Source of the DNA: Escherichia phage CF2
Direction: 5' to 3' (one strand)
DNA: 53,242 nt
Sequence record: KY608966
The notes beneath the pieces were generated by a model, which ran no database searches, had not been told where the DNA came from, and saw nothing but the letters and a program-made list of their open reading frames with translations. A program made the position numbers and the translations under genes. Each line of letters opens with the position of its first letter. Position 1 is the stretch's first letter. Below are positions 1 through 53,242 of the stretch, piece by piece.

Positions 1-306
1 AAAAAAATTTACGCCGGCGAAAAATAATAAAAAACCGGATTGATAAATAAATCTGTAGACGTTTACACGACCTTTATATAGATGTTATAATAACTATCTA
101 AAGTCCAGCAAAGGTATTGTAATGAATATACAACAGGAAGTACAAGCTGAATTTGATTATGTTGATGGCATGTTGTATCGTAAACATAGCCACGGTAACG
201 TCAAGCAAGGCGATAAATTTGGTACCGTAGTACCAGCAGGATACATTGAAGGCTTTTTCAAAAATAAGAAGACGTCTTTGCACGTTCTTGTCTGGCAATG
301 GCACAA
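1..306. repeat. Terminal direct repeat, left copy (same as 52937..53242)
   Basis: Bases 1-306 read identically at 52937-53242. The repeat covers a promoter and the first 185 nt of the HNH gene. Confidence 0.9.
62..91 (+). promoter_or_regulatory. sigma70-type promoter TTTACA-18-TATAAT (upstream of HNH gene)
   Basis: -35 TTTACA at 62-67 and -10 TATAAT at 86-91. A second copy lies at 52998-53027. Confidence 0.6.
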
Positions 307-622
307 TGGTGAAATACCGGAAGGTTATGTAGTAGACCACAAGGACCGCAATAAACTCAATTGTAAAATTGATAACTTACGCCTTGCTACAGCTAGCCAG
401 AATCAAGCTAATCGTGGGGTTAATTATAATAGTACAACAGGCGTCAAAGGTTTGCAGGTAACAACACAGCGTGGTTATACTTATTATGCTGCTAAGATAA
501 CTGTCAACGGTAAAAGATTGAGAAAAACCTTTAAATATACGGAAGAAGGCAAAGAATTAGCTATTGCCTGGCTTCAAGAACAACGTCAAAAATTACACGG
601 AGAATTTGCTTGTGATAACTAG
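122..622 (+). CDS. HNH homing endonuclease with AP2-like DNA-binding domain
   Basis: 166 aa. HNH core 'GYVVDHKDRNKLNCKIDNLRLATASQNQAN', then an AP2-like segment 'GVKGL..YYAAKITVNGKRLRKTFKYTEEGKELA'. Confidence 0.8.
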   Translation: MNIQQEVQAEFDYVDGMLYRKHSHGNVKQGDKFGTVVPAGYIEGFFKNKKTSLHVLVWQWHNGEIPEGYVVDHKDRNKLNCKIDNLRLATASQNQANRGVNYNSTTGVKGLQVTTQRGYTYYAAKITVNGKRLRKTFKYTEEGKELAIAWLQEQRQKLHGEFACDN

Positions 623-1052
623 AGCGTCAATTAGAGCGAAAGGACAGAACTTTGAGCGCAAAATGGCTAAGAAGTTCAATAGCTCGTTTGGATTAACTGT
701 TGAGCGCAATCTTCAACAGTCTATTAATGGCGGGGATGACTTGCTGGGTGTACCGTTTTTCAGTGTTGAACTGAAGAAGCACAATACTAAGTCTATCGGA
801 ACATGGTGGAGACAGTGTGCGGCATCGGCAAAGGCTCAGAACAAGATGCCAGTGCTTATATACGAACTACCAAGAAAACAGCCTACCGTGGTGATGAATA
901 AGGCTGATGTGATTGACTGTTTTCCAAGTGGCACGACTTTTAACGAGGCATCGAACCGCCTCTTTGTGGGTCTGGTAGAATTAACATGGGAACAATTTTG
1001 CCGGGTCTACAACTATTACGTTGCGCCCGGCACTCAATATCACGTCAATTAA
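612..1052 (+). CDS. PD-(D/E)XK nuclease, Holliday-junction-resolvase-like
   Basis: 'KGQNFER' and 'GGDD..FSVELKK' (D..ExK) motifs. The frame is open from 564. GTG 612 has GGAG 10 nt upstream, but the start is uncertain (ATG 663 is an alternative). Confidence 0.5.
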   Translation: MITRASIRAKGQNFERKMAKKFNSSFGLTVERNLQQSINGGDDLLGVPFFSVELKKHNTKSIGTWWRQCAASAKAQNKMPVLIYELPRKQPTVVMNKADVIDCFPSGTTFNEASNRLFVGLVELTWEQFCRVYNYYVAPGTQYHVN

Positions 1053-1234
1053 TCTTGTTTCAGCTCGTTACAAATAACACGCTGATTTTTGGCGGGGATA
1101 ATACCAAGATTCAGTAGGGTGTATGGACTATCAGCGACGCATTGTTCAACGGTAGTCCATTCAGGTTTGGATTCAACAATTTCGTAATTGCAGTCGTGAG
1201 TTGCTATACATGTTGCCAGGATTAAGCCAATCAC
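1049..1234 (-). CDS. Small putative lipoprotein or secreted protein
   Basis: 61 aa. GTG start with GGAG 7 nt upstream. N-terminus 'MIGLILATC' resembles a signal peptide with a lipobox. The start overlaps the upstream stop as GTGA. Confidence 0.45.
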   Translation of the reverse strand: MIGLILATCIATHDCNYEIVESKPEWTTVEQCVADSPYTLLNLGIIPAKNQRVICNELKQD

Positions 1235-1410
1235 AAGTAATCTCCATCAACCAGAAACTCAAACAATTGGTTGTAAACGTTGCAACCTTTAGCGAAAGAG
1301 CTTTCAGCAGGTTTACCGTCGCGGACAATCATCATATACTCACCGCCATGGATGTCCACCCAGTATTGCATGCCACCTTTGACCGGATTACGTTGCAGAA
1401 ATTTAAACAT
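1231..1410 (-). CDS. Hypothetical small protein (59 aa, below the ORF-track cutoff)
   Basis: Manual translation gives MFKFLQRNPVKGGMQYWVDIHGGEYMMIVRDGKPAESSFAKGCNVYNQLFEFLVDGDYL. AGGAG lies upstream, and TAATG and GTGA overlaps couple it to both neighbours. Confidence 0.45.
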   Translation of the reverse strand: MFKFLQRNPVKGGMQYWVDIHGGEYMMIVRDGKPAESSFAKGCNVYNQLFEFLVDGDYL

Positions 1411-1655
1411 TATTTACTCCTGACTCCAAGTTTATTCAATAGCCACACTGTCATGTCAACCCAGGTTAACGGTACAGTTTTCGGGGGTTGATAATCCCAG
1501 CAGCTTGCAGTTCTTTGTATTTCTGCTTGGCGCCGCTCCGCTTCGCGTAATACCGCATCGTCAGAAGTGCCGGCAGAAAAAAGATCGGTAACACCAGATA
1601 AATCGCGTTGATTAACACGTCGAGCAATGTCATATAAATCATCCTTAGAAAACAT
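1410..1655 (-). CDS. Hypothetical early protein
   Basis: 81-aa ORF in the leftward operon. Confidence 0.55.
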   Translation of the reverse strand: MFSKDDLYDIARRVNQRDLSGVTDLFSAGTSDDAVLREAERRQAEIQRTASCWDYQPPKTVPLTWVDMTVWLLNKLGVRSK

Positions 1656-1770
1656 AAGCCAATACCATAAGAATTATCAGAAAGATCCCAACCAGCTTCC
1701 TCATAGCCCGACCTTCAGCATATGCAGGATTCACAACAGAATACTCAACAACATGTTTACAGCGGACCAT
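1645..1770 (-). CDS. Hypothetical 41-aa membrane peptide
   Basis: Manual translation gives MVRCKHVVEYSVVNPAYAEGRAMRKLVGIFLIILMVLAYVF. GGAGG lies 5 nt upstream and the C-terminus is hydrophobic. Confidence 0.35.
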   Translation of the reverse strand: MVRCKHVVEYSVVNPAYAEGRAMRKLVGIFLIILMVLAYVF

Positions 1771-1789
1771 AAGGCCTCCACTTGTGGGT

Positions 1790-1834
1790 TAATTCAATCA
1801 TGAGGACTTTTGGCAAATCCTCATTGTTGAATCA
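1790..1834 (-). promoter_or_regulatory. Bipartite intercistronic RNA hairpin HP0 (candidate RNase III or RNA-stability site)
   Basis: Upper stem 1800-1806/1818-1824 (atgagga/tcctcat). Lower stem aattcaa/ttgaat, separated from the upper stem by 2x2 internal loops. Confidence 0.5.
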
Positions 1835-2032
1835 CTCAATCATTATCTGTACTACTATTATACACTCTTTATTGAAGCGGGTAAACACCTTTCCACCATT
1901 GGTGCGTTTAGCTCCGGACTTTAGAGCTGACTGGCACCAGACATGCCACTCCTCAACTGTCAAGAATTTTTGCTCAGCTTTGGGTGGTAGTCCATTGGCA
2001 AGGTCTACCGTAGTAAATTTGACTAGTGGCAT
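1832..2032 (-). CDS. Hypothetical early protein
   Basis: 66 aa. ATG 2032 overlaps the upstream TGA as TGATG. Confidence 0.5.
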   Translation of the reverse strand: MPLVKFTTVDLANGLPPKAEQKFLTVEEWHVWCQSALKSGAKRTNGGKVFTRFNKECIIVVQIMIE

Positions 2033-2421
2033 CACTTGACCTCAAATTTTGACTCGTCATATTCCGGATCAGTCACGTCCCGGGTCGCACAATTTTTGAT
2101 TGCATCCCAGTAACGTTGGGCATCATCGCCATCGACATAAACTGTCCAGTGGCCGTAACCACCTTCAAATCTGTCCCAGGCTTGTTCCCAGACTTTGCCA
2201 TCTTCCAGCTTGTACCAAGTTGGACGACTGTCAAACTCGCGGATTGGATGGTACCCCATCAAAGGATTCATCAGGTCAATAATGTCTTCCCGACTAATCT
2301 CCTGGTTCTCCCACAACACCGTCATGAATTGCTCAAACTTGAAGGCGTTTGGCAGAATTTTGATGACTTCACCATCACAATATACGGTATAGGTGCCATC
2401 TTCGCATTTTGCACTGTACAT
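2032..2421 (-). CDS. Hypothetical early protein
   Basis: 129 aa from ATG 2421, preceded by 'aggagagagaaac'. The longer track start lies inside hairpin HP1. Confidence 0.65.
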   Translation of the reverse strand: MYSAKCEDGTYTVYCDGEVIKILPNAFKFEQFMTVLWENQEISREDIIDLMNPLMGYHPIREFDSRPTWYKLEDGKVWEQAWDRFEGGYGHWTVYVDGDDAQRYWDAIKNCATRDVTDPEYDESKFEVK

Positions 2422-2438
2422 GTTTCTCTCTCCTATTG

Positions 2439-2495
2439 ATATAATTTCAATCATGAACTATCACAACTTTGGATAGTTCATTGTTGAAACTATAC
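2439..2495 (-). promoter_or_regulatory. Bipartite intercistronic RNA hairpin HP1
   Basis: Perfect 10-bp upper stem 2453-2462/2472-2481. Lower 10-bp stem 2441-2450/2484-2493 contains a G.U pair only in the minus sense. Confidence 0.6.
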
Positions 2496-2663
2496 TAACT
2501 TTGTTGCGATCTGAATTGTCAGCCGGAAGTCTTCCATCAAGTTATCAAACTCTTTGGAACCGCCAACCGCATCAGATATTTGGTCTTTCACAATTTGGGC
2601 ATTTGATTCCAGTAATTCAATCAGGTGCGCCAATTCGTCTTCAGTCAATTTCAGATCTTTCAT
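2490..2663 (-). CDS. Hypothetical small acidic early protein (paralogue of 2923..3081)
   Basis: 57 aa from ATG 2663, with an ATGA overlap. N-terminus 'MKDLKLTEDELAHLIELLE' resembles 'MLKIKLTKDQAMALRDMMIELE'. Confidence 0.55.
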   Translation of the reverse strand: MKDLKLTEDELAHLIELLESNAQIVKDQISDAVGGSKEFDNLMEDFRLTIQIATKLV

Positions 2664-2917
2664 AATGCATCCACCCAAGCCATAACTTTTGCCAGTCTTA
2701 CAACGTCTTCATGGTCCCGCTCGCCATCAGAAAATTCGCTGGCGATGATACCCATAATTGACGCCAGATTCATGTTGATGATGTAGGCGTGTTGGCGCAC
2801 TTCATCAATTCCTGAATCTATCACCAGTTCCGCAAATTCTTGTGAACCTTCATCCCATTCAGCCCAATACTGCTCAGCATAAAAGTCCAGTTCTTTTTTC
2901 ATCTCAATATCAGTCAT
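2660..2917 (-). CDS. Hypothetical acidic early protein
   Basis: 85 aa, rich in Asp and Glu. GAGGAG lies 8 nt upstream. Confidence 0.6.
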   Translation of the reverse strand: MTDIEMKKELDFYAEQYWAEWDEGSQEFAELVIDSGIDEVRQHAYIINMNLASIMGIIASEFSDGERDHEDVVRLAKVMAWVDAL

Positions 2918-2922
2918 TTTGA

Positions 2923-3081
2923 TTACTCCTCAGAACCTGAAAATTTGTCGTCAATGGCTTCAACAATATAATCAAGAGTTGAAGTGTGAGAACTATCAGA
3001 AAAAGTGCCCATCTTCTCTAACTCAATCATCATATCCCGCAAGGCCATCGCCTGGTCTTTGGTCAGTTTGATTTTAAGCAT
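2923..3081 (-). CDS. Hypothetical small acidic early protein
   Basis: 52 aa from ATG 3081, preceded by 'caggagagaaac'. Confidence 0.5.
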   Translation of the reverse strand: MLKIKLTKDQAMALRDMMIELEKMGTFSDSSHTSTLDYIVEAIDDKFSGSEE

Positions 3082-3101
3082 GTTTCTCTCCTGTTGATTG
3101 T

Positions 3102-3151
3102 GAATAATTTCAATTGATGGCACTACTTGAGTGCCATCTCAAAAATTACTC
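3102..3151 (-). promoter_or_regulatory. Bipartite intercistronic RNA hairpin HP2
   Basis: Upper stem 3116-3123/3131-3138 (gatggcac/gtgccatc). Lower stem 3102-3110/3143-3151. Confidence 0.55.
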
Positions 3152-3718
3152 TTCAGTAGTTTCTTGTTCTTCAATTTCAGGTTTTTCTTCAGCTTCAGGT
3201 TTTTTGCCTGTTACTGATTTGCCGTCAGTCACTTTACCAGATTTTACATCATTACGGTAGTATGACATATATGACTGGATAACACGTTTTGCTCTAATAT
3301 CATCCGCTTCCATTCCGCAAGCTTTCATCGCATCAGCGAGTGCCAATTTGGAATCTTCTTTATCCATCAAGTTGTAATCTTTGAACACCAGATAGCAAGT
3401 ATCTTTAGTTGATGGACCAGATGACGATTTGCGAGAGCCACCAGCAGATGCTCGTGTTGTCGCAACTTTGACTTCTTCAACTTCCAGTTGGTTCAGCTCG
3501 TCAAACAAAGCCTTCACCAGCACTTCTTTAGAGTCTTTGACACTTACAGAACTTTCATCATTAAGCGACTTAATCATCTTAATGATCTGGTTATTGGCAA
3601 AGTACTGAAGACTATCCATCTGCACTACAATAGTGCCAAGACTTTCAGTAGTCAGACCAGATTTCACAGACTCGACAGAAAAAGCGGAAGTCAGGTAAAC
3701 GTAGTTGATAGTTGTCAT
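3146..3718 (-). CDS. Hypothetical early protein with acidic C-terminal tail
   Basis: 190-aa ORF with a Ser/Gly linker and an 'EEKPEIEEQETTEE' tail. Confidence 0.7.
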   Translation of the reverse strand: MTTINYVYLTSAFSVESVKSGLTTESLGTIVVQMDSLQYFANNQIIKMIKSLNDESSVSVKDSKEVLVKALFDELNQLEVEEVKVATTRASAGGSRKSSSGPSTKDTCYLVFKDYNLMDKEDSKLALADAMKACGMEADDIRAKRVIQSYMSYYRNDVKSGKVTDGKSVTGKKPEAEEKPEIEEQETTEE

Positions 3719-3766
3719 TTGATGTATCCTCGTTGATAGAATTTTTGATAGGTGTCAATCCTTGAC

Positions 3767-3820
3767 AAGTAATTCCAATCATGACAACTTTTATCAAGTT
3801 GTCATTGTTGGAAATTACTT
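3767..3820 (-). promoter_or_regulatory. Bipartite intercistronic RNA hairpin HP3
   Basis: Perfect 10-bp upper stem 3781-3790/3796-3805. Lower 12-bp stem 3767-3778/3808-3820 has one bulge. Confidence 0.6.
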
Positions 3821-4117
3821 CGCGCTTGCGTTTTCAACAGCTTGTACGACTTTCAACAAATGCCTGAAGTCATCATGATAAACTTCATTAAAGCCATCTG
3901 CCGCAAAGTTTTCGCCAATTAAGATCAGTCTTTCGCGGACCAAGTCAATCAAGAGTTTATTGTCAGTTATTTCAGCACCTGTAATAAGTTCAACAAATAA
4001 TTGCTGTACGTTATCATAACAGATGTTGCTTTCAATACACACTTGGCGCATGTCTTCAACTATTGACATGATTGTGACTTGCATTTCTACGTCAGAAGTG
4101 ATGTTATTCAGTTTCAT
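3815..4117 (-). CDS. Hypothetical acidic early protein (first gene of leftward operon)
   Basis: 100-aa ORF. Confidence 0.65.
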   Translation of the reverse strand: MKLNNITSDVEMQVTIMSIVEDMRQVCIESNICYDNVQQLFVELITGAEITDNKLLIDLVRERLILIGENFAADGFNEVYHDDFRHLLKVVQAVENASAK

Positions 4118-4131
4118 AATAGTTACCTTTG

Positions 4132-4186
4132 TATTAGTTTCCAGGCGTGACTACTGATACCAATAGTCACTGGTTGAAACTATTAC
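4132..4186 (-). promoter_or_regulatory. Bipartite RNA hairpin HP4 in the leader of the leftward operon
   Basis: Upper stem 4147-4153/4164-4170. Lower stem tattagtttcc/tgaaactatta. Confidence 0.55.
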
Positions 4187-4333
4187 TAGTGTTACTATCA
4201 ACAAGAAACATGTTACCAAATTGTTAAAGAGCGGTCTGGTACTATTCGACCAGGTAAAGTTATTATTTGCGCATCTTGACGACACGCGCCAGACAAGACG
4301 CTTGACACATTCATCATTCGTCTTGATGTAATA

Positions 4334-4362
4334 ATTATAGGCCAGTCAATCAATGTTGTACA
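4334..4362 (-). promoter_or_regulatory. Candidate leftward early promoter TGTACA-17-TATAAT
   Basis: The minus strand reads TGTACA (4357-4362), a 17-nt spacer, then TATAAT (4334-4339). Confidence 0.45.
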
Positions 4363-4476
4363 TAAAAGAATTGCAAGTTTATGCAAGTTTTTAGAAATGA
4401 TAATCACTTGCGATTGAGAGTGGTTCTCGTATGCAATTGATATAGTTTCACATGTAATTACTCAATCCAAAATGGT

Positions 4477-4530
4477 CGGCAGGGGTTATAATCACATAGG
4501 GGTGCCACTTAAAGGAGCCGGCGAAATTAT
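4477..4530. repeat. Imperfect direct repeat A1 (about 55 nt)
   Basis: 'cggcagggg..aggggtgccac..aggagccggcgaaatt' aligns with A2. The GCCGGCGAAA core also occurs at 14-23. Confidence 0.6.
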
Positions 4531-4538
4531 TTCTAAAA

Positions 4539-4562
4539 ATATAATTTCAATCTGAATTATAG
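4539..4562 (-). promoter_or_regulatory. Minimal hairpin HP5 (lower-stem consensus only)
   Basis: ataatttca-atc-tgaattat. It has the same flank consensus as HP0-HP4 but no upper stem. Confidence 0.35.
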
Positions 4563-4653
4563 ACGCTTTGTGTTATAACGGCCGAAGTAGTTCATACGGT
4601 AATTGTATCAATCGCAATAGTTACCAGGGTAATCGTTTCAATCGAAATAGGTG

Positions 4654-4716
4654 CGGCGGGGGGTAATTTCGCAGGGGTGCTACCTGCCAGGAGCCAGCGG
4701 AATTTTTTTATTTTTT
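4654..4716. repeat. Imperfect direct repeat A2, ending in a T-run
   Basis: 'cggcgggggg..aggggtgctac..aggagccagcggaattttttt'. It contains the hairpin gcagg-ggtgcta-cctgc. Confidence 0.6.
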
Positions 4717-4937
4717 GGTATTTTCTCCTTATCAGGACCAATCATCATCAGAGTAACACGGCAGGAGCTAACCTTTTGCTTATCACAATAATAAGTGAAG
4801 CCCCTCTAAAATTTTTTTATATTTTTCGGAAATTGTGTAGACACTCACTAAAAAGTGGTGTACTTTCTCTCCTCCACGCGCTATCATTAATGTGAATCAT
4901 CAAACGGCCTCACGGTCTCCTACTTGTGGGTAACATT

Positions 4938-19174: not shown

Positions 19175-21304
19175 ATGTCGCTTCCACTTAATGAGGTTGT
19201 CGACGTCCAGTTCAGTAAGAGCAACGGGGGTAAAGGTTTTACCCCCAATGTTCCGCTGGAAGGTATAATGCTTTCCAACTACGAGTACTCAATCGTCGCG
19301 GGTGATGACCCTGTTCAGCTAGTTGTGCGTTACATTCCAACCAACGCTACTGAGCGTGGTATGGCATGGAAATCTAGCGACCCGGACGTTATCACTGTTG
19401 ATGAGCTCGGATTTGTGAAGCCACTGGCGGAAGGTGTTGCATACGTGACTGGTACGTCTGTTGACGGCGGTTATACAGTACGGGCAAAGTTTAACATTGC
19501 TCGGGCACCTATCCTTGTTGAATCTGTTACAGTGTCTCCCACAAGTGTGACACTTGAAGAGGGCAAGACTCAACGCCTGACATACACCTATTTACCTGCT
19601 AACGCAGATAATCCTGATTTCTACTGGATTTCAGATGATGAGTCTGTTGCTGTCGTTAGCGACAACGGGCTTGTCACTGCCATTGGAGATGGCGAAACAA
19701 CTGTAAACGTACAGTACGGTGTTGACAGCTCTATATTCGATAGCTGTACAGTAACTGTTATTCCTCCTGTTGTGCACGTTACAGGAGTCGAGTTTCTTAC
19801 TCAGTCACCTCTTAACGTTAATATCGGAAGCACAGCTGGTACTAGTATTCGTATATCGCCAGAAGATGCCACTGACAAAACAGTGACATACGAAAGCAAT
19901 GCACCTACTATAGCAACTGTGGACACTGACGGAAATGTTACTGGTATTGTAGCTGGTAATGCCACTGTTACTGTTAAGACGAATGACGGTGATAAGACTG
20001 ACACTCTTGACATTATAGTCAGGGTGCCTGCTGTAAATGTTACCGGTGTAAGTATTGACGAAGGCGATACAGCTTCCATGGAAGTTGGTGACACTCTTCA
20101 GCTACATGCCACTGTGACTCCTGAAAATGCTACTGACCCATCTGTTGTATGGAGTGCTCCTGTATCAGAAGTTGCGTCTGTTACTGAAGCTGGTTTGGTA
20201 ACCGCTAACGCTGCAGGCTTAATTGATGTTACTGTTATCACTAATGACGGGAACTTTACAGATAGAATCGAGGTTAAAGTTACAGACCCTAGCATCGCAG
20301 TTACGGATGTTGCATGGGCTCCTGACTCTCCGACTAAAGTAAGCGCTGGCCATCAGGTGCAGACTAAAATTGTTATAACACCTGACAACGCAACCAATAA
20401 AAAAGTCAGTTACAATAGCTCAAATCCTGACGCTGTTACTGTTGACACTAACGGAGTTATATACGGTCAATCTCCTGGAACTTCGACTATTACAGTTACA
20501 ACAGACGACGGTGGACTTGAGGCTTCATTTGTAGCTACTTGCACGGAGGTGGCTGTTATTACACCAGATGGTCTTGGTGGTATCCCAATTGGTGGTACTC
20601 AGCAGCTCACTTATACTGTTAGTCCGTCTGACGCTGAGCTGACTAATATTCGTTATGAGTCTGCTGACCCAGCTATTGCAACTGTTGATTCGTCTGGCGT
20701 TGTAACTGGTGTTGCTAGCGGCGGATGTAACATCTGGATTTACGCAACTAGCAATGGCGCTGACATTAGTGCAGCCACTTGGGCACAAATCTCTGAGAAG
20801 GTACAGGTATATCCTCAGTACGCCGAATGGCTTGTGGGTAACACCAAACAGCTTGATGTTGAGATTTATCCGTCGGACTCTAAGAGCGTTACCGTTACTT
20901 ATGAATCGTCAAATGACGCTATCATTAGTATAGATGCAAATGGTTTGATGACTGCTAAGTCTGAAGGTTCAGCAACTATTACTGCTAACGTTGTGATGAA
21001 CGGTGTTGCTGCGTCTGGTACAACATCTCCTTACGTGTCTGAGCTTTCTGTTACTACTGATTCGCTGCCTGCACTTACTGTTGGCAACACGCAGCAGCTG
21101 GTTGTAACTGTTAGACCTGAATACGCTAAGACAGACCCAGGCTATAACATTCAGTATACAACTACAGACGATACTGTCGCTACTGTAAGTACTACCGGTG
21201 TTATTACTGGCGTTGGTAACGGTGGATGTCGTATTGGTGCCACAGTAACTGTGAGAAATGCTACAGCGTCGGACAGCTCTTATCAGTCCGTCGATGCAGC
21301 ATAA
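19175..21304 (+). CDS. Ig-like (Big_2) repeat protein, about 8 tandem domains
   Basis: Eight units of roughly 85-90 aa of the form 'VTGV..VG.T.QL.ATV.P.NAT...V.Y.S....ATVD..G.VTG...G.ATITV'. ATG 19175 follows AAGGAG. Confidence 0.8.
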   Translation: MSLPLNEVVDVQFSKSNGGKGFTPNVPLEGIMLSNYEYSIVAGDDPVQLVVRYIPTNATERGMAWKSSDPDVITVDELGFVKPLAEGVAYVTGTSVDGGYTVRAKFNIARAPILVESVTVSPTSVTLEEGKTQRLTYTYLPANADNPDFYWISDDESVAVVSDNGLVTAIGDGETTVNVQYGVDSSIFDSCTVTVIPPVVHVTGVEFLTQSPLNVNIGSTAGTSIRISPEDATDKTVTYESNAPTIATVDTDGNVTGIVAGNATVTVKTNDGDKTDTLDIIVRVPAVNVTGVSIDEGDTASMEVGDTLQLHATVTPENATDPSVVWSAPVSEVASVTEAGLVTANAAGLIDVTVITNDGNFTDRIEVKVTDPSIAVTDVAWAPDSPTKVSAGHQVQTKIVITPDNATNKKVSYNSSNPDAVTVDTNGVIYGQSPGTSTITVTTDDGGLEASFVATCTEVAVITPDGLGGIPIGGTQQLTYTVSPSDAELTNIRYESADPAIATVDSSGVVTGVASGGCNIWIYATSNGADISAATWAQISEKVQVYPQYAEWLVGNTKQLDVEIYPSDSKSVTVTYESSNDAIISIDANGLMTAKSEGSATITANVVMNGVAASGTTSPYVSELSVTTDSLPALTVGNTQQLVVTVRPEYAKTDPGYNIQYTTTDDTVATVSTTGVITGVGNGGCRIGATVTVRNATASDSSYQSVDAA

Positions 21305-49754: not shown

Positions 49755-50087
49755 ATGATAAAGCCAAAACTGTTGCGGCATATTCGCAACGGTATTAAGC
49801 TACTCGCCGAAGGCAATGAATATGCCTGCAAGCAACGCGGTATTACAAAAGTCGGCCTGTTCAATAAAGAGTTACCGACTCGCTACTTTACCAAATCACC
49901 ATTAACACTCGTACCTGCAGCGGAGTATTATAAAGACCCCGAAGCAGCTCGGGCTAAAATCAAGGAAGGTCTTGACCGACTTGTAGAGGAAGGCTATTTG
50001 ACAGTACGTCAACACACTGAATCATCTTATTACTACAAGCCAACTTCTAAGGTAACCAGCAATGACAATGACGAGTCAGCCGAGTGA
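49755..50087 (+). CDS. Hypothetical protein (possible winged-helix DNA binder)
   Basis: 110 aa with an AGAGGAGAGA RBS, directly upstream of the primase-helicase gene. Confidence 0.55.
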   Translation: MIKPKLLRHIRNGIKLLAEGNEYACKQRGITKVGLFNKELPTRYFTKSPLTLVPAAEYYKDPEAARAKIKEGLDRLVEEGYLTVRQHTESSYYYKPTSKVTSNDNDESAE

Positions 50088-52596
50088 TATTCTCGGTCTG
50101 AAATACTTTAAGCCAGAAGGGATTCCACAAGTCTTCAAAGATATGAAGCGCTGGGCTATTTTTGAGCTGACGTACGAAGACGAGACTCTCGAAGTTCAAT
50201 CCAAACCTAAGAAACCTGCAAGAGCGCCATCAGGCCGTTCCTTCAGCACAACAGTGCCTGAAGAGTGGATGACTTTCGACGACGCCCTGACACGTTGTAT
50301 CCGCAATCGTGAAATGAAGATTAAAGCTGTACAGGGTAACATCACCTTTGTGCCGGCTTTGATTGTTCCTCGCCAGTGGTACTTTGTTGACCTGGACAAC
50401 CATGAAGATAATCCAGACATTGAAGCTACCCACAAAGCGATAATTGAGGGTACCCGTGGTGCTTATGCAGAGACGTCAATCTCTGGCAAAGGTCAACACA
50501 TCGCAATCCCTTTACCCTGGACCGCAGCAACATCTAAAGAGAAAGACGACCAGCTGGACATCAAAATCCAGAAGGCTGAGATGTTCCTGGTAATGACAGG
50601 CAATGTGTTGAGTGAGTTCAATGCTAATCCTGTTTCAGCCCGTGAATGGCATGCAGCAATTGAGAAGTTCTTTCTTGAATCAAGCGCACCTGATATTGAT
50701 GTTGAGTTTGAGCAAGACGAAGACCGTGGCGAAGAGTATGACAAAGAGCTGTACGAACAGTTAGCCGACAATACTCGCTGGGCCTTAGAACACTATCTGA
50801 ATGAACATGCACCAGACGGTGTTGGTGTGAGTAATGACGGTTCCGAACGTTTAAGCCGCATACTCAAAGACTTGCTTCGTGTAACCCGTAACTATGAAGT
50901 TACACAACGCATCTTCATGGCCAGCAAAGCTGCAGCATACGAAGGTCGCAGACCAAGCCGACACAACTTGTCTGTTGACAAGTACCACCAGTGGTTCAGC
51001 CGTGTTGGTAAGACTGTGCTGAAAGAGATGCAACGTGACGGCTTATTCGTTAAGACCAAGTTTGCTCTTGACATCAACAAAGAGTTAGCCAAGAATTCAG
51101 GTGTCTCCCTGGCTGAGAACGTTGAGTTCAAGGTCAACGACGACATTCTGCCTTCTGATGTATTCGTCAGGACGGCTCCGTCCGGGTTTAAACGGCTTAT
51201 TGCTGAGATACAGGATAACATATCTCCGGCTAACAGGGTTAACGACTATGCAATCGGCACAGCTCTTAACATACTGAGCAACTGCGCCGGTCGCAAGTAT
51301 GTTTGTCCAGTAGGCGGTCATGCTAACTTCCTGGTAACCAACATCATTCTTGTGGGTGGTTCATCAATCGGTAAATCCCTGTATACCGAAATGTTCCCAC
51401 AAATCCAGGCAAGTGTGCCAGACACATCGCCTATCAGCCTTAACCGTATCCCAAGGGAACAGACTTTTGCAACCAGGACGTTTGCTGAACTGATGTCCAA
51501 CCCGTCATACCATTCAGTCCAGTTGTTCTACCCTGAATTTGGTCTGGCTTTAGGTTCAGGCTTACGCATGAATCCTAACAACCCGGACAACTTTCAGAAA
51601 GCTCTGATGGACGCTTCAACCAAGCGTAAGGTTGGCGGTATACTGACAGGTATCAAACGTGCTAATGCTGACAATGATGTCAAGACAGTAAGCGAACCGT
51701 GTTACTCTATCCTGGGTGACTCCACTCAAGAGCTTATCCTTGACAACACCCGGAAGCAAGACTTCTCAAGTGGCTTTTTGCCCCGCTTCCTGTTCATCCC
51801 GAACTACGAACGAGCGGAGTTTGCCAAACCTGAGAAGGTAGGACGTCGCCAGCAGATTCGCCGTACGTCCTTTTCAAAGGAGCTGATTGAGAAGCTGGAA
51901 GCAATCGCTTATGTGAATGCTATCCCGCCTAACGGTAAACTAAGGCACGACCCGATTCCTATTTACGATGAGTCGGACGATGATGACTTCCTGTACGAGT
52001 ACCAGTGCAATATTAATGACATGCGCCAGTATTACAGGGACAACGAAGTAGCATCTGCCTTTGTGGGCCGAATGGGTGAGTATGTATTCAATATAGCAGC
52101 ACTGATTGGCTTACTCGACAACTGGGATGCTCCTGTAATGACCAGGGACAACATCGAATGGGCTTACAAATACGTTCTTCGTTGTATAACCGCCTGGGTC
52201 AATAACACAAGCAGAATAGTCGCACCTCCGACTACCAACGCTGAAGTAGTTGACGGCTTCCTCAAAGTCTACAGGGACATTTTGGCCCTTTACGCCAAAA
52301 GCGGATGGAACGGTATTGTTAAGCATTATCCTGAGGGTGTTGTGAGAAGTATTCGAGAAGAACACCTCCAGATGAATGGTTTAAGCATATATGCTATTCG
52401 TCAATCTTTAAGCTGGTTTAAATCAAATTATGGTTTTAATATCACGGCTAATAATAAAGTCATTGACGGAATGCTACAGGACATGATTGACCAGGACTAT
52501 TTAGCGGTTCAAATATATAAGCCCACAAGAGGCCGAACTGCTAACATTTACTGCCTGACAGAGCGAGGATATGACACTGCTAAGAAACTAAAATAA
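50062..52596 (+). CDS. Bifunctional AEP primase-polymerase / D5-like SF3 helicase
   Basis: AEP motifs 'YFVDLDNHED' and 'ETSISGKGQHI'. Walker A 'VGGSSIGKS' lies in the C-terminal half. Confidence 0.8.
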   Translation: MTMTSQPSDILGLKYFKPEGIPQVFKDMKRWAIFELTYEDETLEVQSKPKKPARAPSGRSFSTTVPEEWMTFDDALTRCIRNREMKIKAVQGNITFVPALIVPRQWYFVDLDNHEDNPDIEATHKAIIEGTRGAYAETSISGKGQHIAIPLPWTAATSKEKDDQLDIKIQKAEMFLVMTGNVLSEFNANPVSAREWHAAIEKFFLESSAPDIDVEFEQDEDRGEEYDKELYEQLADNTRWALEHYLNEHAPDGVGVSNDGSERLSRILKDLLRVTRNYEVTQRIFMASKAAAYEGRRPSRHNLSVDKYHQWFSRVGKTVLKEMQRDGLFVKTKFALDINKELAKNSGVSLAENVEFKVNDDILPSDVFVRTAPSGFKRLIAEIQDNISPANRVNDYAIGTALNILSNCAGRKYVCPVGGHANFLVTNIILVGGSSIGKSLYTEMFPQIQASVPDTSPISLNRIPREQTFATRTFAELMSNPSYHSVQLFYPEFGLALGSGLRMNPNNPDNFQKALMDASTKRKVGGILTGIKRANADNDVKTVSEPCYSILGDSTQELILDNTRKQDFSSGFLPRFLFIPNYERAEFAKPEKVGRRQQIRRTSFSKELIEKLEAIAYVNAIPPNGKLRHDPIPIYDESDDDDFLYEYQCNINDMRQYYRDNEVASAFVGRMGEYVFNIAALIGLLDNWDAPVMTRDNIEWAYKYVLRCITAWVNNTSRIVAPPTTNAEVVDGFLKVYRDILALYAKSGWNGIVKHYPEGVVRSIREEHLQMNGLSIYAIRQSLSWFKSNYGFNITANNKVIDGMLQDMIDQDYLAVQIYKPTRGRTANIYCLTERGYDTAKKLK

Positions 52597-52607
52597 GTAA
52601 GTAAATC

Positions 52608-52650
52608 AAGGGCTTGGGTAATTGTAAAAATCCTAAGCCCTTATTTTTTA
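52608..52650 (+). terminator. Rho-independent terminator after the primase-helicase gene
   Basis: 11-bp stem aagggcttggg/cctaagccctt followed by 'attttttaa'. Confidence 0.75.
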
Positions 52651-52690
52651 AGCTTATTTTACAAACTGATTAATATTTAAACTATAATTA

Positions 52691-52750
52691 AATATATGGG
52701 CTATAAGAGTATGATTTTATTACTCTTTTACTAACCATAATATATGGGCT
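52691..52750. repeat. Direct 12-mer repeat AATATATGGGCT x2 (48-bp spacing) flanking the hairpin aagagta/tactctt
   Basis: Copies lie at 52691-52702 and 52739-52750. Confidence 0.7.
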
Positions 52751-52764
52751 CCTTATAAAAGATT

Positions 52765-52809
52765 AAGGGGGTAAAAAAGGGGGATACAAGACCCGGATAA
52801 AAGGGGGTA
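52765..52809. repeat. Iteron-like AAGGGGG(T/A) x3, spaced 12 and 24 bp
   Basis: Copies begin at 52765, 52777 and 52801. A CCGGATAAA motif lies between them. Confidence 0.65.
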
Positions 52810-52817
52810 TATATTTA

Positions 52818-52840
52818 TTTATTATTATTATTATTATTAT
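52818..52840. repeat. (ATT)n microsatellite in an AT-rich tract
   Basis: 'attattattattattattat'. Confidence 0.8.
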
Positions 52841-52936
52841 ATATTATTAATTATATTAGAAGTAATAAAAACAGCTACTTAGAGGCGTCTATATGTATGA
52901 TCCGGTTTATCTCTTTATTAATATCAGAACCGGATG

Positions 52937-53242
52937 AAAAAAAAATTTACGCCGGCGAAAAATAATAAAAAACCGGATTGATAAATAAATCTGTAGACGT
53001 TTACACGACCTTTATATAGATGTTATAATAACTATCTAAAGTCCAGCAAAGGTATTGTAATGAATATACAACAGGAAGTACAAGCTGAATTTGATTATGT
53101 TGATGGCATGTTGTATCGTAAACATAGCCACGGTAACGTCAAGCAAGGCGATAAATTTGGTACCGTAGTACCAGCAGGATACATTGAAGGCTTTTTCAAA
53201 AATAAGAAGACGTCTTTGCACGTTCTTGTCTGGCAATGGCAC
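52937..53242. repeat. Terminal direct repeat, right copy
   Basis: Identical to 1-306. The window ends inside the duplicated HNH ORF. Confidence 0.9.

Follow-up and report, generated by a model that had tools for sequence, protein, structure and literature searches.

Escherichia phage CF2 is deposited as a 53,242-nucleotide sequence (record KY608966; hereafter the window) whose two ends share an exact repeat and whose right end lies beyond the non-coding region that follows a primase-helicase gene. We conclude, with a probability of about 80%, that the window is a single Rosemountvirus genome unit, assembled as a collapsed circle whose opening lies 15 bp leftward of the real physical end, and that the virion DNA would extend from position 16 (= 52954) to position 4695. 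Homology to the mapped ends of relatives predicts a true direct terminal repeat (DTR) of 4,680 bp, one full copy of which is present in the window, and hence a virion DNA of 52,938 + 4,680 = 57,618 bp (~57.6 kb), near the 57.0 kb of phages fHy-Eco03 and vB_SalM_Sz (Sz). The packaged DNA would start with 5'-GGCGAAAAA and end with ...GGAGCC-3'. In what follows, L denotes the left DTR boundary, R2 the right DTR boundary, and R1 a paralogous site to the left of R2.

The window is 80-97% identical to Rosemountvirus records (BP63, yarpen, brunost, Sz, LPSEYT, and others) and, judged by this identity, CF2 is a Rosemountvirus, a BP63-like Salmonella/E. coli myovirus. Published work has already described long repeats ending here in this group, of which the window is another member. 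Phage fHy-Eco03 has a 3,699-bp DTR with 11 genes, which its authors identified by PhageTerm and say they confirmed with restriction digests (PMC8145870); the repeat is annotated as features in its record (MW602648). PhageTerm likewise gave a 3,915-bp DTR for Klebsiella phage AEV23, which is 97.2% identical to phage S144 (PMC12918118). The 57,020-bp record of Sz carries an exact 4,263-bp repeat at both ends. We located both boundaries in the sequence for fHy-Eco03 and Sz.

The left boundaries of fHy-Eco03 (...GTTATTGCC|GGCGCAAAAAG) and Sz (...ATTTACGCT|GGCGAAAAAAA) fall on the identical homologous base, and the counterpart in the window (...ATTTACGCC|GGCGAAAAATA, or in short form ...TTTACGCC|GGCGAAAAA) is 52953|52954, equivalent to 15|16. 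The left boundary of CF2 aligns base for base with those of fHy-Eco03, Sz, and 14 other sequences, and window positions 52946-53029, downstream of the primase-helicase gene, contain the complete homologous arrangement of …YGCC|GGCG, an A-run, GYCGGATTG, and an early promoter. A preliminary description made from the letters of the window had proposed a genome terminus somewhere in 52597-53242, and this alignment bears the proposal out. The right boundaries of the relatives also coincide, reading ...CCAGGAGCC|AGCGGAATTTTTTT in Sz and the window and ...TTAAGCCCC|GGCAAATTTTTT in fHy-Eco03. The homologous site, sought 3.7-4.7 kb rightward of the left boundary, lies at window 4654-4716, with the boundary itself (...GGAGCC|AGCGGAATTTTTTT) at 4695|4696; here the window and Sz do not differ over a stretch running from at least 50 nt ahead of the Sz right boundary to 80 nt past it, and fHy-Eco03 is homologous.

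Two further relatives agree with these positions. The distance from L to R2 in S144 is exactly 3,915 bp, which is the repeat length reported for AEV23, and the authors of the S144 study mapped a non-cohesive physical end by restriction to a gap that contains R2 (PMC7432712). The AEV23 record itself (55,637 bp, without a second repeat copy) has phage sequence abutting unrelated DNA exactly at |GGCGG, a mis-join of the kind expected at a physical end. At this left-end base, positions 54,080-55,637 of the record (OR810919) hold ~1.5 kb annotated as 'IS5 family transposase' and 'methyltransferase' together with a repetitive GCTGGCGGG... tail, which looks like host or contaminant DNA mis-assembled onto the physical end. 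From this homology we infer that CF2 would use the same cuts.

A probable assembly overlap at the record ends

The prefix and suffix of the window match exactly only at k = 304, so that 1-304 equals 52939-53242. The preliminary description had thus correctly recognized an exact redundancy but overstated its length as 306 bp, probably because the first base of the window falls within a run of nine A (52937-45), only seven of which are present at that end. It was also right that the repeat ends inside the HNH open reading frame (ORF; 122-622), although 183 nt and not 185 nt into it, and its doubt that a repeat ending within a gene could be a true short DTR was justified.

This 304-bp redundancy is almost certainly an assembly overlap of two contig ends and not the terminal repeat of the phage. 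The ends are exactly identical and their edges lie off biological landmarks: the left edge (…GGATGAA|AAAAAAA) is in a homopolymer, 15 bp outside the conserved GCC|GGCG cut, so that the aligned terminus falls 15 bp inside the repeat, and the right edge (…GGCAC|AATGG) is within the HNH gene and has neither a cut-site motif nor any similarity to the cut site. Neither edge, therefore, is on a conserved cleavage position, and the right boundary sequence is found instead at 4695|4696; as the terminal repeat itself, the redundancy does not hold up. Two full copies of the predicted repeat are absent from the window, in which only 304 bp are duplicated, as a collapse of the repeat during assembly would produce. 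Raw contigs of four relatives' assemblies (from Logan, the European Nucleotide Archive, and a bacterial assembly) run unbroken through both L and R2, as expected of DTR genomes, which assemble as collapsed circles (PMC5418689).

Other records open close to the same places. Phage SB2 (OP745622) has its own exact 264-bp end overlap, which, on the unique-sequence side, falls one base short of the same DTR boundary and looks like an effect of assembly rather than biology; it is a second case of an untrimmed overlap beside a physical end. Relative to L, SB2 opens at -1, AEV23 at +7, and PEA2-3 at +12, and LPSEYT opens at R2 +6. In its exact prefix/suffix identity and in edges that ignore landmarks, the CF2 overlap resembles the contig-end overlaps that tools such as CheckV score as 'DTR'. 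It differs from a typical de Bruijn k-mer overlap in being longer, and from other contig-end overlaps in that one of its edges is 15 bp from a real physical end, a proximity it shares with SB2, PEA2-3, and AEV23.

Sequence elements at the repeat boundaries

The features discussed here and below are collected in Table 1. At the left cut, 15 of the 17 sequences compared share an unvarying CC|GGCG, the other two, Sz and LPSEYT, having CT|GGCG. Just inside the cut, Rosemountvirus, Loughboroughvirus, SE1_KM, and SOI901 all have a near-invariant A6-8 G(Y)CGGATTG, and GTAGACG stands between CCGGATTG and the early promoter. This promoter, which the preliminary description did not list, reads into the HNH gene and a RusA-like gene, and its GTAGACGTTTACA and TAYAAT elements are invariant in relatives. 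Conservation is highest in the last ~110 bp, both in the alignment of 12 relatives and among 17 boundary sequences. The blocks near L remain near-invariant even in SE1_KM and SOI901, where the C-terminal region of the primase (298-aa query) is 42% and 40% identical, and such strong non-coding conservation argues for an essential cis-acting role.

Table 1. Coordinates of the predicted repeat, the record overlap, and the genes and motifs around them in the 53,242-nt window
Feature	Position	Strand	Remarks
Predicted true DTR, 4,680 bp	16..4695		Homology to Sz and fHy-Eco03 boundaries; one full copy in window
Left copy of overlap	1..304		15 bp unique sequence plus first 289 bp of predicted real DTR
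Right copy of overlap	52939..53242		Exact match to left copy
Palindrome CGCCGGCG with predicted left end	52950..52957		Cut 52953|52954 = 15|16; A-run precedes
A-run and CCGGATTG	52966..52980	+	Third direct CCGGAT copy (= 35-40 in left copy), just inside end
Early sigma70-type promoter, TTTACA-N18-TATAAT with TG	53000..53029 (= 62-91)	+	11/12 matches; -35 starts 46 nt inside end
HNH homing-endonuclease gene	122..622	+	Pfam HNH_3, E = 2.8e-20; first 183 nt repeated at 53060-53242
R1 module	4477..4532	+	G-boxes (CAGGGGTT, TAGGGGTG), then GGAGCC|GGCGAAATT at 4519|4520
R2 module	4654..4716	+	G-boxes (GGGGGGTAAT, AGGGGTGC), GGAGCC|AGCGGAA, T-runs; predicted right end 4695|4696
Primase-helicase gene	50062..52596	+	Last gene of unique segment ahead of DTR
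Primase intrinsic terminator	52608..52649	+	11-bp stem (52608-18/52632-42), 13-nt loop, A + T6
Two AATATATGGGCT 12-mers	52691-702, 52739-750	+	48 bp apart, flanking 7-bp hairpin
G-box cluster	52765..52808	+	AAGGGGG(T/A) at 52765, 52777, 52801
A/T-only tract, 51 nt	52808..52858		Contains (TTA)13; longest such tract in window
Conserved block AAAACA-NNN-ACTTAG (AAAACAnnnACTTAG)	52868..52882	+	Unique in window
Inverted repeat ATCCGGT-N22-ACCGGAT	52900..52935		19-54 nt left of cut

On the right side, R1 (4477-4532) and R2 (4654-4708) form a direct duplication 176 bp apart, and in each a pair of G-boxes precedes GGAGCC|RGCGRAA and an A/T-rich run. R1 is kept in Sz, yarpen, SE13, ZCSE2, fHy-Eco03, and L150/L151, and both modules are conserved across two genera. 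R1 matches the left cut better than R2 does, with GCC|GGCGAAA, ~40 A/T-rich nt, and TAGACG. No record was found to end at R1, which may be an alternative or ancestral cut site. A weaker third unit lies 105-111 bp further on (~4759-4834), making 4462-4834 a tandem array of two to three modules.

The distribution of these motifs over the window follows the boundaries. GCCRGCG has four + strand sites in all: L, R1, R2, and 40764. RGGGGK occurs 18 times on the + strand versus twice on the - strand, and its densest 60-bp windows genome-wide are the L junction (five), R2 (three), and R1 (two), every other holding one at most, so that G-boxes mark repeat boundaries generally, not just the primase-proximal region. 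Conserved, repeated motifs flank the predicted cut and are shared between the cut sites. A pattern with a fixed gap from G-box to cut gave no match, as the spacing between the two differs from site to site. The strand asymmetry extends to GGGGG (ten on the + strand versus one on the - strand), and that of RGGGGK persists outside the boundary clusters. Two copies of GGGGGTAA also stand in inverted orientation at 19226/19239, possibly forming a terminator within the structural gene block.

The non-coding region to the left of the cut, 52597-52953, is the junction, which in replicating concatemers would be the last unique sequence ahead of the DTR. All of the motifs that the preliminary description had listed for 52597-53242 are present and, in statistical terms, restricted to this part of the window. 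They include the two 12-mers 48 bp apart (52691 and 52739), which are found nowhere else in the window; the 7-bp hairpin (AAGAGTA/TACTCTT, 52705-11 and 52721-27); the three AAGGGGG(T/A) boxes at 12- and 24-bp spacing (52765, 52777, and 52801); and the (ATT)n run, which we find as (TTA)13 within the A/T-only tract. Some positions in that list needed correction: CCGGAT is found at 52793, 52930, and 52973 (= 35) and inverted at 52900, the positions 52928 and 52899 given previously being the starts of longer AACCGGAT matches, and the 52930 copy reads CCGGATG, which departs from the CCGGAT(A/T) rule proposed for it. Relative to L, by our own reckoning, the copies lie at about -24 and about +20, with the inverted one at about -54. 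Four CCGGAT in 186 bp compare with 21 in the window on both strands and with ~0.07 expected (post-hoc Poisson P ~1e-6, by our own arithmetic and not as the output of a tool). One of them, at 52793 (CCCGGAT, 52792-52798), sits between G-boxes 2 and 3. AAGGGGG has only its three copies here on either strand of the 53 kb, where ~2.9 would be expected genome-wide.

Conservation within the junction is uneven. AAAACA-NNN-ACTTAG is near-invariant in 12 relatives and present also in Erwinia phage SOI901. The right arm of the inverted repeat (GA(A/C)CGGAT) is conserved but its left arm is not. The repeat number of the A/T tract varies, and the tract is annotated as 'repeat_region' in the brunost, birk, yarpen, and rivia records. 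At its upstream end the junction contains an intrinsic terminator of the primase gene that was missing from the preliminary list (dG, the folding free energy, -20.5 kcal/mol; z -3.96; 0 of 200 shuffles fold as well), whose arms are kept in 12 relatives with changes on both arms. A unit TAAG(Y)(C)CTT(R)(W)TTTT...A(T)ACTCTTTT (window 52634-52730) occurs in two to three copies 3' of the primase gene in all relatives, including SOI901, and its first copy is the 3' arm and T-run of this terminator; we rejected TAAGyCCTTrTTTT...ACTCTTTT as a phage promoter, as the rest of the window has no further copy of it. When 52680-52960 was folded as single-stranded DNA, no overall structure emerged (z = 0.06), and an Rfam search of the whole window returned no match.

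Genes inside and beside the predicted repeat

The predicted repeat contains the HNH gene, the RusA-like gene, and a leftward cluster of small early genes, and if the long DTR is true, all of these would be present twice per virion. Its G+C content is lower than that of the genome (about 39-43% versus 46% overall). The HNH gene is inserted between the early promoter and the RusA-like/PDDEXK gene. The listed relatives except LPSEYT lack it, homology to them breaking at ~53006 (= 68) and resuming at ~630. With the insertion the RusA-like gene seems to have lost its original ATG, so that an internal ATG at 664 (MAKKF) is its likely start. The HNH cassette carries its own -10 region, the homology with relatives breaking right after GTTTACAC.

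The site from promoter to RusA-like gene (62-660; 53000-53242) is a hot spot for insertion. HNH genes occupy it in the window and in LPSEYT, a Bro-N domain gene in birk (the start of the SB2 gene resembles it, unchecked against Pfam), a small ORF in fHy-Eco03 and L152 (65 aa each) and in SE1_KM, and the ~1.5 kb of foreign DNA in AEV23. The leftward cluster has a promoter-like site at 4362-4334 on the - strand (10/12 matches). In fHy-Eco03, one gene of this cluster (gp05) proved toxic to E. coli (PMC8145870).

To the left of the cut, the 844-aa product of the + strand ORF at 50062-52596 was identified as a primase-helicase by a match to PHROG 3022 'DNA primase' (E = 8e-187) and a weak match to DUF3987, and its homologues in relatives are annotated as primase or primase/helicase. 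A PDB sequence search with the protein gave no match. Its C-terminal 218 aa alone returned no homologue, and a single-sequence AlphaFold2 model of the last 140 aa (predicted local distance difference test score, pLDDT, 38) made no DNA-binding domain demonstrable; a winged helix there would be a guess. An ORF of 110 aa (49755-50087; PHROG 28429, function unassigned, no Pfam match) shares 26 nt with the start of the primase-helicase gene, and the pair is kept in all relatives examined, down to SOI901.

The large terminase subunit (TerL) has a weak Pfam match to Terminase_6N that is uninformative on packaging type, and a PDB sequence search with TerL returned spurious repeat-protein matches only. 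A protein-guided scan of IMG/VR recovered four already-known isolates and no metagenomic relatives, and a scan of the same collection with a promoter 14-mer was discarded after producing more than 100 unrelated chance matches.

End formation, competing explanations, and known systems

Long-DTR packaging suggests the following course of events. Replication would generate concatemers with one repeat copy per unit, and terminase or an associated nuclease would cut at GCC|RGCG, at L for the left end and at R2 for the right; the conserved flanking elements may guide the enzyme to these sites. That G-box clusters and GCC|RGCG also occur together at the right boundary favours a putative role in packaging or end formation. 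The repeat might be duplicated by strand displacement after staggered nicks, or by sacrifice of alternate genomes. The early promoter, ~45 bp inside the end and so within the first ~75 bp, could then fire from injected DNA and switch on the early genes. The DNA of S144 and fHy-Eco03 resists most restriction enzymes, S144 being cut only by the A/T-site enzymes SspI and PacI (PMC7432712, PMC8145870). This resistance suggests base modification in the phage group, which could matter for recognition of an end with the G+C-rich cut core GCCGGCG.

Several observations run counter to a long DTR, or to an assembly overlap, in CF2. With S144, SspI digestion produced two bands of 5-7 kb in place of a 12.6-kb fragment; by the SspI sites that we located, a single end at R2 fits these bands (5.66 + 6.94 kb), whereas the long-DTR model gives 5.66 + 10.86 kb. 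The authors of that study favoured short repeats (PMC7432712), and PhageTerm called the Rosemountvirus vB_SenM-1 'COS' (PMC7503781). The starts of records near L may partly reflect authors re-orienting their genomes to match relatives, and 304 bp is not a standard k-mer overlap. We also rejected a T7-like hairpin at the junction, as RNAalifold found zero conserved pairs in the 70 nt upstream of L across 11 relatives. The S144 and vB_SenM-1 conflicts lower our confidence somewhat, but they are outweighed, because two PhageTerm results and the Sz record agree with one another and with the positions of the motifs.

Could the junction instead be a replication origin? The A/T tract and phased boxes (52691-52858) would then be bound or melted by the primase-helicase encoded just upstream, a function that could coexist with a terminus. 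The arrangement is suggestive: three AAGGGGG boxes recur as direct repeats at 12/24-bp phasing, two 12-mers lie 48 bp apart, the longest A/T-only tract in the genome adjoins them (among the regions of 18 relatives it measures 46-66 nt in 17 and 31 nt in KE25), and the site is directly 3' of the primase-helicase gene. Iteron origins adjoin primase-helicase or Rep genes in P4 (ori/crr) and in SaPI/PICI elements (Staphylococcus aureus pathogenicity islands and phage-inducible chromosomal islands), which likewise have phased short direct repeats by an A/T-rich tract immediately 3' of the primase-helicase gene. Unlike those, however, the CF2 repeats do not clearly behave as a co-varying array in relatives, as iterons should. 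G-box 1 is kept, but in ZCSE2 and fHy-Eco03 boxes 2 and 3 have no G-run (reading AAAGAAAT/AAGAGAAT) while retaining spacing and purine richness; the two 12-mers drift independently of each other, and their sub-region (52691-52750) is swapped for a different sequence in yarpen-type phages. Equivalent G-box clusters, moreover, lie beside both right-boundary sites. The absence of a demonstrable DNA-binding domain in the primase-helicase C-terminus (pLDDT 38, no PDB match, no homologues) also speaks against it. GC skew has its minimum near 3-5 kb and not at the junction; because the skew tracks the direction of transcription, it is uninformative here, and we dropped its cumulative form as an origin locator. 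On balance we regard an origin here as possible but doubtful. A combined scheme, in which a modular cis-element (G-box pair, GCC|RGCG, and A/T-run) sets the cuts at L, R2, and a spare R1 that might yield a shorter repeat, while the A/T tract and phased boxes double as an origin and so couple initiation to end formation, is to us an unlikely, tentative extension.

Packaging without fixed ends is very improbable. Were CF2 packaged by a permuted headful mechanism, the overlap would be an artefact of circular assembly and the region would serve transcription only, as terminator, early promoter, and regulator sites. A clear terminator and an 11/12 promoter are indeed present, G-box clusters also lie between divergent promoters on the right side, and the four raw contigs of relatives are unbroken at the junction; but PhageTerm gave fixed ends in two relatives (with digests in fHy-Eco03, per its authors), restriction mapping of S144 gave a fixed, non-cohesive end on the R side, the Sz and fHy-Eco03 boundaries coincide to the base, and AEV23 is mis-joined exactly at L. 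Least probable of all is that the 304-bp repeat is a genuine short, T7-like DTR of this phage. Its left edge is 15 bp off the cut in a homopolymer and its right edge is in the HNH gene at no motif, the R2 boundary sequence at 4695 is intact and identical to that of Sz, and the overlap in SB2, which lies across the boundary from this one, seems to stem from assembly; against these stand the exactness of the repeat, its position within 15 bp of a terminus known in relatives, and the short repeats that the S144 authors proposed for a phage of the sister genus.

A long DTR, the explanation we prefer, makes CF2 most like fHy-Eco03 (MW602648; PMC8145870), Sz, and AEV23. These share with the window the order of primase-helicase, junction, and a repeat starting 5'-GGCG; an early promoter, RusA-like gene, and leftward small-gene cluster inside the repeat; and a right boundary of GGGGGGTAAT...GCC|RGC followed by T-runs. 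The window differs in holding 304 bp of a second copy, in that its own ends are predicted by homology, and in a longer predicted repeat (4,680 versus 3,699-4,263 bp), owing partly to the HNH insertion.

Beyond the group, the predicted repeat resembles the long DTRs of T5 and SPO1 type, which are kilobase-scale exact repeats with early or host-takeover genes and position-specific ends, have a short sequence at both ends, and collapse on assembly to arbitrarily opened circles. The T5 repeat is about 10 kb and that of SPO1 about 13 kb, so the repeat predicted here is shorter. The ends of SPO1-like Bacillus phages have a fixed common motif, AGGTTTT/AAAACCT, in inverted orientation (PMC5418689); proteins and motif are unrelated to those of CF2, in which GCC|RGCG is in direct orientation. 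Phages T7 and T3, with short DTRs, are alike in their fixed, non-permuted ends, in an early promoter near the left end, and in that the repeat is duplicated, or alternate genomes are discarded, when concatemers are cut. The T7 repeat, however, is 160 bp and non-coding, and nothing conserved here corresponds to the hairpin intermediate proposed for that phage.

For CF2, the record is not to be read as circular or as having a 304-bp terminal repeat, and a genome map should begin at window position 16 with the 4.68-kb repeat. More generally, many Rosemountvirus and Loughboroughvirus records are opened arbitrarily or have their ends described inconsistently (as COS, short DTR, or circular), and the conserved boundary sequences permit these records to be re-oriented without reads. 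The shared cut core, the R1/R2 duplication, and the boundary-specific G-box clusters are modest, testable additions to the published accounts that we consulted, in which they are absent. How kilobase-long exact repeats are generated is poorly understood, and the common cut core and boundary G-box clusters offer concrete sites for mutation or terminase-binding tests.

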